Part shown: piece by piece, positions 10,929-21,006 of the stretch
How positions within the stretch are numbered: position 1 is the stretch's first letter
Layout: every line of letters starts with the position of its first letter
DNA from: Parachlamydiaceae bacterium
GTDB lineage: Bacteria > Chlamydiota > Chlamydiia > Chlamydiales > Parachlamydiaceae
Assembly: GCA_030679615.1 (NCBI GenBank)
Contig: JAUXSJ010000304.1
Span: 1 to 24,364 of the forward strand
Reading direction: 5' to 3'
DNA length: 24,364 nucleotides
Notes under the pieces: model-generated
Told to the model about the DNA's origin: nothing
Databases searched by the model: none
What the model saw: the letters and a program-made list of their open reading frames with translations, nothing else
Program-made: the position numbers and the translations under genes

Positions 10929-11281
10929 GCAACATCTCTACTTAAGCAACAATGGAGTAAAAATCAACCACAGGGATCAAAAAATCGACTTTAGGTTTTT
11001 TACTCAATCGCCATGTCTTCATGATACCTTTTGGAGTGCGAAGGCCCTGCCTTCGCTTTTTTCAAGAGAGAATAATTATGATGCAATGTCATTATCCGGC
11101 TTAATCAATTCAATTTATAAAAGTGCATATGTGGATATCCGAATCATAAAAAAGCGAAGGCAGGGCCTTCGCACTCCAAAAGGTATCATGAAGTCATGGC
11201 GATTGAATAAAAAAGCCTAAAGTCGACTCTGATCTTAGTAGTTAATTTTTACGCCATTGTTACTTAAGTTGATGATGTTGC
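10929..11281. repeat. 353-bp REPIN-like inverted doublet of GGAG-tagged REP units
   Basis: Inner arms 11004-11062 and 11148-11206 (59 bp, 1 mismatch), each containing gcgaagg-ccctg-ccttcgc. Imperfect outer arms extend to 10929 and 11281; 85-nt spacer. Confidence 0.9.
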
Positions 11282-16052: not shown

Positions 16053-17210
16053 ATGACTGATTATTACGAAATTTTAGAAGTTCCTCGAAATGCAACAGCC
16101 GAAGAAATTAAAAAAGGCTATCGCAAAAAAGCTCTTCAGTTTCATCCTGATAAAAATCCAGGGGATGCAAAAGCTGAAAAACGTTTTAAAGAAGTTTCAG
16201 AAGCGTATGAAGTCTTAAGTGATGAGAAAAAAAGACAAATTTACGATCGCTACGGAAAAGAAGCCTTACAAGGTGGAGCCGGTGGAGGTCCTGGAATGCA
16301 AGGATTTTCTTCAATGGACGAAGCTCTTCGTACATTTATGGGTGCTTTCGGCATGGGCGGCGGCGGTGGTGAAACAATTTTTGATTTCTTTGGAGGCGGA
16401 GACTTTCGCGGTCAAGAAAGTAGTCGAGGTGCTCGACAAGGCGCAAGCAAACGGGTCAATATCACGATATCCTTTGAAGAAGCAGCGAGAGGTACAGACA
16501 AAGAACTTGCCGTTAGTAACTATGTTGCTTGTTCGACTTGTAATGGAAAAGGTTCTAGCAACCCGAAATCAGTAAAAACTTGTTCACAATGTAATGGAAG
16601 AGGTCAAGTCTTTGAACAAAGAGGCTTCTTTAACATGACAACAGGATGCCCAACCTGTCATGGTGAAGGAAAAGTTATTACGGATCCTTGCAAAAATTGC
16701 CGTGGTCAAGGTGTTGTTAAGGAAAAGCAACATGTTAAAGTGCATATTCCTGCTGGTGTAGATAGCGGAATGCGTCTTAAAATGAATGGACATGGAGATG
16801 CTGGACAGAATGGCGGTCCTGCTGGGGATTTGTATGTCTTCATCACAGTAGAATCGCATGAATTATTTGAAAGAGAAGGCAATGATATTCTCTTAGATGT
16901 ACCTGTTAGCTTTACTGAAGCTGCTTTAGGAACTAAAAAAGAGGTCCCTTCTTTATTTAATCATACCTGCCGGATTACTATCCCAGAAGGAACTCAAAAT
17001 GGAAAAATATTTAGAGTGACTGGAGAAGGTTTTCCAAATGTTCATGGTCATGGTCGAGGTGATTTGTTAATTAGCATTTTTGTTGAAACCCCAACAGGTC
17101 TAAATGAAAGTCAAAAAGAATTATTACGTCAATTTGGTGAAACCGAAGGAATTAATAATTTACCTAAACGCAAAGGCTTTTTAGATAAAATTAAAGAATT
17201 CTTTAATTAA
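16053..17210 (+). CDS. dnaJ: Chaperone DnaJ
   Basis: J-domain with HPD, G/F-rich linker, four CxxCxGxG repeats, C-terminal domain. Confidence 0.98.
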
Positions 17211-17309
17211 TGCAACGCTTTATATGAATGATGTTAATAAATAAGTTTATGTTAACTAATTACTAAATTACTTAATATTAGATTTCTTTCAAAACTTAAA
17301 GGGGATTAA

Positions 17310-17448
17310 ATACAAAGACACGAAGACTCTAAGGCACGAAGAAGTTTAAAGGATGGGCTTTATGATTCGAACACCATCTTTTACGTAAGGGACTCCAAAA
17401 TAATCTTGTCTTTGCTCTTTGTGTCTTCGTACCTTTGTGTCTTTATGT
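17310..17448. repeat. Degenerate family B palindrome
   Basis: acaaagacacgaagac...gcacgaag (17312-17341) faces ctttgtgtcttcgtacctttgtgtctt (17417-17443); same ACACRAAG units as 1107-1277. Confidence 0.7.
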
Positions 17449-17545: not shown

Positions 17546-17713
17546 TATAGTCAATTAAATTACATTTGATAATTTTTGACCGCGTCAAAGCCTCGAGATT
17601 AAAAAATTTTTTCATGTGCAATATTAATTTAATATTGTACATGAAAAAATTTATTCAATCGCGAGGCTTTCACGCTGGTCAAAATTTTATCAACTGTGGT
17701 TTAATCGACTATA
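17546..17713. mobile_element. 168-bp palindromic MITE-like element, family E copy 1
   Basis: Full-length imperfect palindrome with TATA at both ends; second copy 1115 bp downstream. Confidence 0.8.
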
Positions 17714-18508
17714 TTTAAATATTTCTCCCAAATTCTTTAAATGCATCTTAAATTCATCAAGAAGATTATTTAAATTATCAATATTTGATTGATGCCTATT
17801 AATAGAATTACCTAAATGTGAATTTTCTAATTTTCTTTCTTCAGCTAGTAATAATTTCTCGGTTATGCTAATGAGTTGTGTCATGTCTTTCTTATTTTTT
17901 TCATAAGATTTTAAATTTCTATAAACATTAAGAAATTTTTCTCCTATATTAATAAAATGATCAATATCTCTCTGCTGAATTTCACTTAGTGGCTTTTTAC
18001 TTATTATTGTATTAAAAGATGATATTTTAGGCTTTAAACTTTCGAGTTTATCACTCGCTTGAGAATCAAAATTTCTCCAGCCGTCTAACGTTTTTAAATT
18101 TTGTTGATGTCTGTTTTTAGATTTTGGTTGTACAGAATCAGTATAAGCTTGTCGTTCTCTCTCAAATAATTTTTCAACCCCTTTTGAAATTATTTTTTTA
18201 TCATCTCCTGTGATCATTTCCAGAGTATTTTTATTATCATCATCAGAATTAACTTTTTGTTTTTCAATTTTATTTATGGTTTTTTCAAATTTTTTTAATT
18301 CCTTAATTGAATTATCTACATCGTTTCTTCCTATTTTTGTTATTTTTTTTTCACTAATCGCTTCAAAATGATCAACTGTTTTTTTTATTTCTTTCAACTG
18401 ATCCAAAACTTTATTTTCATGTATCTTTTCTTTCAAACTTGGAATTTTATTTTCTGGTTGAAGAATATAAACTTGATTTTGCCCCCTATTAACTTGACTA
18501 CTATCCAT
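17690..18508 (-). CDS. Hypothetical Lys-rich coiled-coil protein (orphan)
   Basis: 272-aa ORF, AGAAGGAG upstream; the last 7 codons and stop lie inside family E copy 1. Confidence 0.78.
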   Translation of the reverse strand: MDSSQVNRGQNQVYILQPENKIPSLKEKIHENKVLDQLKEIKKTVDHFEAISEKKITKIGRNDVDNSIKELKKFEKTINKIEKQKVNSDDDNKNTLEMITGDDKKIISKGVEKLFERERQAYTDSVQPKSKNRHQQNLKTLDGWRNFDSQASDKLESLKPKISSFNTIISKKPLSEIQQRDIDHFINIGEKFLNVYRNLKSYEKNKKDMTQLISITEKLLLAEERKLENSHLGNSINRHQSNIDNLNNLLDEFKMHLKNLGEIFKYSRLNHS

Positions 18509-18660
18509 AATTTTCTCCTTCTAAAACATTTCGAAAAGGAAATAATTTTGAAACTGAATATAATTTTATTAAACAACTAAAAAATTAAGATTATATTTAA
18601 TTTTAATAAGGAAAATGCAAATCATTAGTTTACAATGTGAAGTTTCGTGAAGATTTTAGA

Positions 18661-18829
18661 TATAATCGATTAAATTACATTTGATAATTTTTGACCGCGT
18701 CAAAGCCTCGAGATTGAAAAATTTTTTCATGTGCATTATTGATTTAATATTGCATATGAAAAAATTTATTCAATTGCGAGAGCTTTCACGCTGGTCAAAA
18801 TTTTATCAACTGTGATTAAATCAACTATA
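18661..18829. mobile_element. 169-bp palindromic MITE-like element, family E copy 2
   Basis: Direct repeat of 17546-17713; manual alignment gives 11 substitutions and 1 indel. Confidence 0.8.
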
Positions 18830-19055: not shown

Positions 19056-19111
19056 TTAAGAAAATCTCTTACGCCACTAGCCGTGGCTAATGGCGTAAGA
19101 GATTTTCTTAA
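19056..19111. terminator. GC-cored hairpin downstream of the FGE-domain gene (terminator and/or REP-like unit)
   Basis: ttaagaaaatctcttacgcca / tggcgtaagagattttcttaa, 21 bp perfect, enclosing tagcc-gt-ggcta; 17 nt from the stop at 19129. Confidence 0.7.
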
Positions 19112-19128: not shown

Positions 19129-21006
19129 TTATTTAGCCACGCGAAAGCCAGTAAAGACATCACAATATCCTGGCGGTAAAGCTAGCCTTTCAGAAACACG
19201 CACTCCATCAGCGGTACTATCATAACATCCACCTTTCACAATTTTAAAATTGTTTGGTTCGCTTTTTTCATCCCAATCAGTTACCCACTCCCACACATTA
19301 CCACTCATATCATAAGCGCCGACAGGACTCTTGGCATCGTTTGTTTTTGTGATCGAACGTTCTTGTAGTGTCACGGGCAGCTGGTTTACACCATTATAAA
19401 ACCCTACAGGATTGGTTAAAACTAGAGAACTATCTCTTATCCTCGAAGGGTCACGATAATTAGCCCAAGTGCGATCTATTTCATTTTTTCCAAAGCCATA
19501 TTTATAACGCGTTCCAATAGATCCATCCTTTGAAATTGTCATTCCCGCTGCTTTTTCCCATTCATATTCAGAAAGTAGACGGCCACCATGACTTTTACAA
19601 TAAGCTGAAGCACCAAACCAAGTCACATTAATAACAGGATACAGTTCTTTATCATTTAACACTTCGATCAATACTTGATTATTTGTAGGTAAAGGTTTAA
19701 TCGTTAATTGAGATAAAGGATTTGCTTCTGTTGTTTTGCAAATTAATTGTCCCTCACGATCAAAAATATGACCAGGTTTAGAAATATCTATTTGAAAATT
19801 TTTATTTACTATTTCTTGTGTTACCCACGCAGCAAATTCTTGATTTGTTACAGGATAAACCCCTATAGAGAATTCAGGAATATTTATTTGTTTTGCTGGT
19901 CTTTCATTTTGATGACTATCTGTAAAAGGATCGCCGACGATGGCAACCCCCCCGGGAACATTAACAAACTGATGGGATGGCAAATTCTTTTTTAACGAAA
20001 TTTCTTTATGAACATGAATATCTTGATCTTCTGTTGACAATGACGAAAACAACTCAAGGGTACGAGGTAGACTATTATGTACTGTTACATATGTCGATTT
20101 TGTTAAATTCGATTTATCATCTAAGCGTTGATAAGTTAAAAGATAATGTCCTTCTGGAAGAAATAATGTGTTGTTATTTTGAGTAAAAATTTCATCAATG
20201 ATAATTTTTTTGTTCTTGGGAGATGTCAAAACAACATGGGTTGGGCCTAAAGTTTTTAAAACCAAGGGAGCTGAAATAGGCTGTGAAGCTTTGGAGGTTG
20301 TTGAAGTTGTTTGAGTTGTCTCTTCTTTATTTAATGATTGATCAGATTCTACTGGTTTTTCCTCAATCATTTCATTTTTGATTTCATCGTCAATGATTTC
20401 TTCTTTTTTCTTTTCTAGTTTATTGTTGGGAAGGTTTTCAACAAAATCTGTTTGAATCGTTTGTTTATTAATTAAATTTTTATTCGCAAAGTTTTCATTT
20501 GAATCAGCAATTTCACTCTTTTCTTTGAAAAGTGGTTTTATTTCAGGTTTTTTTAATAGAGATAAAACTTGGTAAATATCCTTTTTAGGAATATTTGGGA
20601 ATATTTTTGAATGAATCACTTGATCGATTTTTACAGTTTCACCCGGACGAATTATAACGGTTTTTGGAACAACTTCTTCAAAAAATCCATCATGATTTGG
20701 AACTATAAATTCAATATAGTAAATACCTGGAGTTAAAGAAGGTATTGCTACCGTTGTTGAAAAACCTGATTGATGACTATCCACAAATTGATTGTTTTTA
20801 GGGTATAACTCATGCTCATCTTTTTCATTGATCAGCCAAAAACGGATTCTATCCAAACGTTCTTTTGCTTGATTTGTTTCGAAAGTCACAATCAGTGTGC
20901 CTGTTTCATTTGAAAATGCGCTTCCAAAGATTATTGAAAACAAGAATAACAAACTTAAGCAATGCAATTTCGGGTGTTTTACAAACATTCTTTTTAATTC
21001 CGTCAA
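19129..21006 (-). CDS. Exported SUMF1/FGE-sulfatase-domain protein
   Basis: N-terminal signal-like hydrophobic stretch; C-terminal YPVTNQEF, PVINVTWFGASAYC, LLSEYEWEKAA, DMSGNVWEW, KGG...GFRV motifs. Confidence 0.88.
   Translation of the reverse strand: MTELKRMFVKHPKLHCLSLLFLFSIIFGSAFSNETGTLIVTFETNQAKERLDRIRFWLINEKDEHELYPKNNQFVDSHQSGFSTTVAIPSLTPGIYYIEFIVPNHDGFFEEVVPKTVIIRPGETVKIDQVIHSKIFPNIPKKDIYQVLSLLKKPEIKPLFKEKSEIADSNENFANKNLINKQTIQTDFVENLPNNKLEKKKEEIIDDEIKNEMIEEKPVESDQSLNKEETTQTTSTTSKASQPISAPLVLKTLGPTHVVLTSPKNKKIIIDEIFTQNNNTLFLPEGHYLLTYQRLDDKSNLTKSTYVTVHNSLPRTLELFSSLSTEDQDIHVHKEISLKKNLPSHQFVNVPGGVAIVGDPFTDSHQNERPAKQINIPEFSIGVYPVTNQEFAAWVTQEIVNKNFQIDISKPGHIFDREGQLICKTTEANPLSQLTIKPLPTNNQVLIEVLNDKELYPVINVTWFGASAYCKSHGGRLLSEYEWEKAAGMTISKDGSIGTRYKYGFGKNEIDRTWANYRDPSRIRDSSLVLTNPVGFYNGVNQLPVTLQERSITKTNDAKSPVGAYDMSGNVWEWVTDWDEKSEPNNFKIVKGGCYDSTADGVRVSERLALPPGYCDVFTGFRVAK

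Follow-up and report, generated by a model that had tools for sequence, protein, structure and literature searches.

Probable independent insertions of an IS630-type palindromic MITE on both sides of an orphan gene in a Parachlamydiaceae genome

The stretch of DNA examined here, hereafter the window, comprises 24,364 nucleotides and represents the longest contig (C338) of a Parachlamydiaceae MAG from a groundwater metagenome, which has a size of 2.26 Mb in 368 contigs, a G+C content of 33%, and a completeness of 87%. Its gene content, which includes mcsAB-clpC and genes for FGE-domain proteins, is among the features that assign it to the environmental Chlamydiota. The dnaJ gene (16053..17210, plus strand) is the last gene in a block that consists of genes for an HD hydrolase and TsaB, a small ORF, and dnaJ. 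Convergent with dnaJ is an orphan gene for a protein of 272 amino acids, here called P0001 (17690..18508, minus strand), with a good ribosome-binding site (AGGAG) located 8 to 12 nt before the ATG. The orphan gene is preceded on the minus strand by a gene for an FGE-sulfatase domain protein (19129..21006), and directly past the stop codon of the latter is a terminator-like hairpin (19056-19111) with 27-nt arms that are 96% complementary and followed by a T-run. This hairpin is possibly a member of a further repeat family. The block of HD hydrolase, tsaB, and dnaJ genes is syntenic in 7 relatives, and in all of them the synteny stops directly after dnaJ (window 17210 onward); an FGE-domain gene, the orphan gene, or mcsAB after dnaJ was found in none of the 7. 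An empty site, for which the earlier note on this locus had proposed to inspect relatives, was not found among them, and the collections searched contained no close strain. Four relatives contain a convergent gene for a protein of about 290 amino acids 3' of dnaJ, the homolog of which is located at the start of contig C185 (2-313) in the genome studied here. Judged from these gene orders, the orphan gene and the 2 MITE copies around it are at a putative rearrangement point. It was also noted that the segment between dnaJ and the left MITE (window 17228-17435) contains an inverted repeat family of the ACAAAGACACGAAG type, with a word depth in the source run of 19-52 versus about 7 for unique DNA.

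The orphan gene product is rich in lysine, asparagine, and glutamate and is predicted to be helical, and the gene has a G+C content of about 25% versus 30-44% in the neighboring genes. No homologs were identified among 5.8 billion proteins or in the JGI metagenome contigs, and searches in 41 relatives gave low-complexity matches only. The protein was not assigned to any Pfam family, and neither Pfam nor Atlas provided usable information. We have treated the gene as real, since an open frame of 272 codons at 25% G+C is unlikely to have arisen by chance.

The orphan gene is enclosed by 2 copies of a palindromic element in the same orientation. The left copy (17546..17713, plus strand, 168 bp) overlaps with the 3' end of the gene, whereas the right copy (18661..18829, plus strand, 169 nt) is located 152 nt upstream of its start codon. 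An earlier note, made from the letters of the window, had described the 2 copies as separated by 11 substitutions and one 1-nt indel, and our alignment gave the same counts, corresponding to 93% identity. That each copy folds along its whole length, as the note had also proposed, was borne out by predicted folding energies of -83.7 kcal/mol for RNA (z = -18.8) and -47.9 kcal/mol for DNA (z = -11.5) relative to shuffled sequences, and the identity of each copy with its own reverse complement amounts to 83-85%. Both copies start with TATA and finish with TATA, and they have the same asymmetries, an unpaired base and a C/G mismatch adjoining GCGTCAAAGC and GCTTTCACGC. In the left copy, the inner core extends from GCGTCAAAGC to GCTTTCACGC (17582..17677) and contains a C·C mismatch and a central terminator-like hairpin between A and T runs. 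The final 24 nt of the 272-codon ORF, corresponding to the last 7 codons and the stop, are located inside the left copy and supply the protein terminus ...KYSRLNHS*, in agreement with the earlier description.

The repeat is far above chance but not special to this locus. The genome-wide search for the element that had been suggested in the earlier note recovered it at 29 places in the 2.26-Mb MAG, including about 13 full-length copies, several that are truncated at the ends of contigs, and three derivatives of about 90 bp with the center deleted. The word depth in the source run was 38-130 over the element versus 6-7 over unique DNA, and the element accounts for many of the contig breaks in this MAG. 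It is small (168 bp), non-coding, multi-copy, and dispersed, as is characteristic of a MITE. All 27 copies examined are located between ORFs or at ORF ends, at least 7 of them 0-5 nt from a stop codon, and their orientation relative to the abutting gene showed no significant bias (9 vs 4, counted by hand). In every reading frame, a stop codon is encountered no more than 8 codons into the element, and insertions at the very end of genes are therefore expected to survive. In this sense, the element illustrates a harmless rewriting of gene ends, with stops in all three frames. The expectation that copies would bracket single genes in arrays was not borne out, in that the copies elsewhere are scattered singly and the window contains the one pair.

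A second family of elements of about 155 bp, with the same ends and a part of the interior in common with the 168-bp family, here called family A, was identified in the same genome. Searches for the arm pattern of family A in the JGI metagenome contigs gave no match. Single TATAGTCGATTAAAT ends were also observed at a fixed distance (about 25 nt, followed by GTTACTTG) from doublets of two or three REP families (C112:5818, C279:8677, C346:2182, C232:876, C121:6852, and C152:3125, the last of which adjoins a Y1 gene), and these arrangements may have arisen by nested insertion or represent a composite repeat unit. Mini-elements of 28-48 bp, which contain barely more than both ends (G000 C9:99-126 and C288:4462-4495; G043 C6:61652-61699 and C11:361-408), could represent products of excision or derivatives with extreme deletions.

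The complete ends all read TATAGTCGATTAAAT / ATTTAATCGACTATA (TATAG...CTATA), and the 15-nt terminal inverted repeats are invariant in the complete copies. A TA dinucleotide bounds every copy on both sides, and abutting elements (C304; G033) have exactly one TA in common, from which we infer a duplication of the TA target. Elements of the IS630/Tc1-mariner group insert at TA and duplicate it. Of the 401 genomes sampled from the phylum, 124 contain transposases of the IS630 family (DDE_3), and a group of elements of about 920-940 bp among them has ends of the type TATAGT-N-TTAAAT-N-CATYGATAA; one related element (L084) encodes an intact transposase of 306 amino acids. The two arms of the palindromic element resemble each other and the ends of insertion sequences over about 28 nt. 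For family A, the outer 30 nt or so of the arms matched the right ends of DDE_3 elements of about 935 bp in other Chlamydiota (L092 and L093) at 27/31 and 26/31 positions, and the alignment without the first 6 nt gave a z of about 6 versus shuffled sequences. Another terminus type of the superfamily (TATACCGCTCGTGATTCAAAA...) is identical at 24/24 positions to the end of an IS630-family insertion sequence of 1121 bp that encodes a transposase of 352 amino acids (L102). A possible extension of the homology past about 30 nt, in the form of a shared GAAAGCT, was considered too weak to claim. Given this homology and the TA-flanked ends, together with the known targeting of TA, the element is best described as an IS630-type MITE, one of the identities that had been put forward in the earlier note. 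As a separate observation, a decayed IS630-family element with 33-nt ends starting with TATAGTAAATTGTG contains an IS5-like element nested inside it (L078; G044 C39).

No DDE_3 or mariner domain and no remnant of a cognate transposase was identified in this MAG (87% complete, 368 contigs), and tblastn searches of the MAG with the related IS630-family proteins gave no match. Nor does any pair of ends at the distance of an insertion sequence enclose a transposase gene in this genome; in another genome (G043), end pairs separated by 2.2 kb and 8 kb enclose housekeeping genes. The enzyme that mobilized the element would thus be either unassembled or lost in this genome.

We consider it likely that the 2 palindromes represent independent insertions of an IS630-type MITE around a resident orphan gene. 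In the proposed scenario, both are fairly old insertions of a non-autonomous MITE of about 168 bp, with ends reading TA followed by TAGTCGATTAAAT... and TA as the target, which would have been mobilized in trans by an IS630-family (DDE_3) transposase with duplication of the TA. One copy would have inserted into a TA located 5 nt before the stop codon of the pre-existing orphan gene, and, since each frame of the element is closed by a stop within 8 codons, the protein terminus would have changed from ...FKYK* to ...FKYSRLNHS*; the other copy would have landed 152 nt upstream of the start codon. When the left copy and one TA were removed in silico, an ORF of 267 codons ending with FKYK* was obtained, with the stop 2 codons past the insertion point. 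The insertion has thus exchanged one residue for SRLNHS, and the excised form is 5 amino acids shorter than the present protein of 272 amino acids, which argues that the gene was there first and is nearly intact. A 4-bp duplication of TATA, which would have given a longer native tail, is disfavored since abutting elements have TA rather than TATA in common. The earlier note had expected scattered copies without a tendency to bracket genes, together with a longer native C-terminus, if the insertions were independent; the copies are indeed scattered, whereas the native C-terminus is not longer but 5 amino acids shorter.

Relative to the family consensus, 6 positions are changed in the left copy and 6 in the right copy, with no change in common, and the copies are therefore not duplicates of one another. 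When 22-27 copies were placed randomly in non-ORF DNA, 29-43% of the trials contained 2 copies no more than 1.2 kb apart. Besides the pair in the window, the assembly contains a single long pairing of ends, of 2.7 kb on C343, which was judged to be due to chance. Since the palindromes are separate insertions of a dispersed MITE, the orphan gene is probably a bystander rather than a mobile cassette. For the locus itself this result is deflationary: 2 MITE insertions have clipped the orphan gene at its last codon and altered its upstream region.

According to an alternative reading, the 2 MITEs and the gene form a composite transposon (17546-18829, 1284 bp) that has moved as one unit via its outermost ends, with the gene as cargo. 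The outer ends are a proper inverted pair flanked by TA, although such flanks are common to all insertions and thus uninformative on this point. The orphan gene is also poor in G+C (about 25% versus 30-44%) and located at the break in synteny, mobilization by flanking MITEs is cited as documented in a passage of PMC11602168, and the similar divergence of both copies from the consensus would fit a joint arrival as well as independent insertions. However, no second copy of the unit of 1.28 kb, or of the gene, was found in the genome or in any of the collections searched, about one third of the genomes with such copy numbers would contain a close pair by chance, the position of the left copy 5 nt before the native stop fits an insertion into a resident gene, and no transposase was found in the MAG (87% complete, 368 contigs). 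The composite or cassette-like unit proposed in the earlier note is for these reasons, and in view of the scattered copies that lack shared derived changes, improbable. Homologous recombination could delete the pair, and a transposase acting on the outer ends could in principle move it, but there was no sign of either. The circular junctions that the earlier note had suggested were likewise not recovered, in that an independent assembly of the source run contained no joint, deletion, or circle; this is weak evidence, as the contigs of such an assembly drop rare forms. One of these contigs spans 17669-18695 and connects the inner arms of the 2 copies.

When both ends were searched for exactly, with one genome per species, elements of 148-167 bp were identified in one MAG labeled Vampirovibrionales as well as in several further MAGs of Chlamydiae. 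In an alignment of nine elements from six genomes, the 15-nt ends were invariant, the blocks GCGYCAAAGC and GCTTTCRCGC were conserved, and a loop ATATT...AATAT was present. The left arms of these elements are only 59% identical, and across the 61 pairs beyond the ends, 94.5% of the cells in the alignment are standard pairs and 41 of the pairs have changed on both sides. In control pairings, the corresponding value was 74% when a left arm was matched with the right arm of another element, and 34-42% when the partner was slid. The mismatch and the bulge, to which the earlier note had drawn attention in the 2 copies, are conserved far beyond them: the C·C mismatch is present in 8 of the nine aligned elements, next to a pair that alternates between T-A and C-G.

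A core pattern that requires this asymmetry was found in 113 of the 401 sampled genomes, which represent 76 of 212 genera, and the largest number of matches in one genome was 71, whereas a control with the reversed pattern gave two matches in total. In five rich genomes, 207 asymmetric elements were counted versus about nine symmetric ones. Among the genomes of about 1 Mb in one family (f20), which are presumably animal pathogens, the pattern was present in 1 of 30. We also observed 132 matches to the end motif and 2 MITE families of the superfamily in a 1.3-Mb MAG titled Chlamydia trachomatis (CAMAUB01..., L056-L073), the label of which looks wrong given the near absence of the core from f20. 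The length of the elements is 163-169 bp everywhere, while the outer 35 nt or so are lineage-specific. About a dozen terminus types were distinguished, most of them starting with TATAC or TATAG, and one genome contained 662 matches to its own terminus 21-mer. In G009, the closest relative as judged by DnaJ, the core and loop are the same but the ends are quite different, and the TATAGTCGATTAAAT ends are also present on elements without the core (L061, L066), which argues that ends and core are separable modules. By these comparisons the core is better conserved than the ends, which is unusual for a MITE that moves only via its ends and is a counterpoint to our main reading. Across the phylum, the presence of the core was not clearly associated with that of DDE_3 or Y1 genes (hand counts, related genomes); DDE_3 genes were present in 9 of the 18 core-richest genomes, compared to a base rate of 31%.

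We suggest tentatively, and as the less probable case, that the inner hairpin of about 100 nt (GCGYCAAAGC, the loop ATATT-AATAT, and GCTTTCRCGC, with the C·C mismatch and the bulge, in elements of 163-169 bp) is a functional module on interchangeable IS630-type ends. It could be a strand-marked structure that is read by a protein or a ribonuclease, or it could be needed for transposition via a folded strand. Arm-to-arm conversion, or the repeated birth of elements from sequences with long inverted ends, are alternatives to a functional hairpin. Within family A, about 14 cells are broken versus 2 compensated pairs, and selection on the pairing is therefore not visible at short range. Searches in Rfam gave sub-threshold matches only, to models of plant and animal microRNA hairpins, which are uninformative because any long AT-rich hairpin would give such matches.

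A related proposal concerns events after the insertion and is compatible with independent insertions. It holds that the element has been domesticated as a structural element, with the hairpin serving, for example, as a two-way terminator between convergent genes or as a target for RNase III or a stabilizer at mRNA 3' ends, and that the pair insulates or regulates the gene. The center of family A forms a 20-bp stem with A and T runs flanking it on both strands, many copies abut stop codons, and the pairing is maintained across the diverged families as described above; for Correia elements, processing by RNase III and the presence of promoters have been described (PMC2649163). Yet the changes in family A are mostly uncompensated, the T-run center is not kept in the other families, and promoter-like sites are no more common than in shuffled sequences. 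We consider domestication to have a slim chance of being correct.

The remaining possibility is that the palindromes are hairpin recombination sites, the single-stranded folds of which would be recombined by an integron-like tyrosine recombinase or by an HUH enzyme (RAYT/IS200-like) with the release of the gene as a circle, and with the conserved bulge and mismatch as strand markers. The genome contains an integron-type integrase gene (C181, 699-1685; TIGR02249, 426 bits versus a cut-off of 265) and at least 4 intact Y1 transposase genes. Across five rich genomes, the C·C mismatch is present in about 96% of the elements and the neighboring pairs covary, and a 1-nt bulge located 4 nt outside the mismatch is kept in several families, as judged by eye. 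Against this, neither an RYYYAAC nor a GTTRRRY core was identified at the ends or at the conserved inner positions of the 2 copies and the family consensus, as the earlier note had already observed for the ends. The element is longer than known attC sites, the copies are scattered singly rather than arrayed, and none of the 29 places are on the integrase contig. The candidate attC on C181 is GC-rich with a GTTAGGC core and unrelated to the element; the Y1 genes have short GC-rich REPs on their flanks, a separate family for each gene, and never the 168-bp element; and the association with Y1 genes across the phylum is weak, with 11 of the 18 rich genomes versus a base rate of 36%. A DDE transposase is indicated by the 15-nt inverted ends with TA, which are invariant and homologous to IS630 ends, and cassette excision at hairpin sites is most improbable.

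On C181 (L110), the integrase gene is followed by 2 orphan ORFs on the same strand that are split by a GC-rich inverted repeat (about 2575-2790) with the GTTAGGC core. This repeat is located 3' of the integrase gene, is unique to the contig, and may be an attC site; the G+C content of the contig (32.7%) is that of the genome. The Y1 (IS200/RAYT-like) genes, of which at least 4 are intact and several are broken, are mutually diverged (C251, C212, C141, C33, C229, C152, C144, and C24) and are flanked on both sides by their own GC-rich REP families with 10-84 genomic copies. The REP of the Y1 gene on C24 corresponds to a hairpin pair at window 11030-11211.

We have interpreted the locus as the product of 2 independent MITE insertions, and as such it is ordinary; the superfamily, the conserved mismatch, and the Correia-like ends are the more interesting part. 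The environmental Chlamydiota contain a large superfamily of palindromic MITEs of about 165 bp, in 113 of the 401 sampled genomes and with hundreds of ends in some of them. No description of such a chlamydial family was found in the literature searched, which is not proof of absence. If the core is indeed a functional module, the superfamily would be a distinct, phylum-wide class of chlamydial mobile elements rather than ordinary decayed insertion sequences.

In comparison with known systems, the pair in the window resembles MITE-flanked composite units such as the integron mobilization units, in which 2 copies of one MITE likewise surround a gene and the outer ends form an inverted pair. Those units are known from the same cargo in several contexts, whereas the unit in the window is unique and shows no sign of movement. 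As in the attC sites of integrons, the element is an imperfect palindrome with conserved unpaired bases in a genome with an integron integrase, but it differs in that it has no R''/R' cores, is 168 bp long with TA-flanked invariant inverted ends, and occurs in single scattered copies that are not beside the integrase. The REP/REPIN-RAYT systems also consist of long hairpins that are abundant between genes, and several RAYT-like Y1 genes with REPs are present here; however, these REPs are short, GC-rich, and unrelated in sequence, and the 168-bp element was not found beside any of the Y1 genes.

A closer parallel is RUP in Streptococcus pneumoniae, which has been assigned to IS630 by the similarity of its inverted ends and its TA targets, with reference to the insertion at and duplication of TA by IS630/Tc1-mariner elements (PMC2229807). 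A matching element, IS630-Spn1, is present in the same genome as RUP, whereas matching insertion sequences for the chlamydial element were identified in other Chlamydiota only, and it is the interior rather than the ends that is conserved across the phylum.

The Correia elements of Neisseria (CREE/NEMIS) are also small (about 105-157 bp), non-coding, dispersed, TA-flanked, and mostly located beside genes, and for these elements (PMC2649163) as for the one studied here no transposase has been found in the host genome. The Correia terminus TATAGTGGATTAAAT, published variants of which begin with tatagtggattaaatttaaa (PMC5039591), is identical to TATAGTCGATTAAAT at 14 of 15 positions, and a variant end that is present at several places in this genome, TATAGTCGATTAAATTTAAA, matches Correia at 19/20 positions. 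The agreement between the family ends and the 26-bp Correia repeat is limited to those first 15 nt, and the interior is, as judged by eye, unlike the published repeat variants (CCGGTACGG / TCAGGACAA ends); the conserved Neisseria core, which has an IHF site in the long form, was likewise not recognized in it. As the interiors are unrelated, the element is not a Correia element; it is a palindrome over its whole length with a conserved core and mismatch of its own, in a different phylum, and promoter, IHF, and RNase III functions have been shown for the Correia elements. The mobilizing mechanism of the Correia elements was undetermined as of 2009 (PMC2649163). The ends that they have in common with the chlamydial element are a lead to a shared transposase family and provide a testable candidate; if the inner hairpin is a functional module on interchangeable ends, the Correia-like ends would point to IS630-family enzymes as the mobilizers of the Correia elements.
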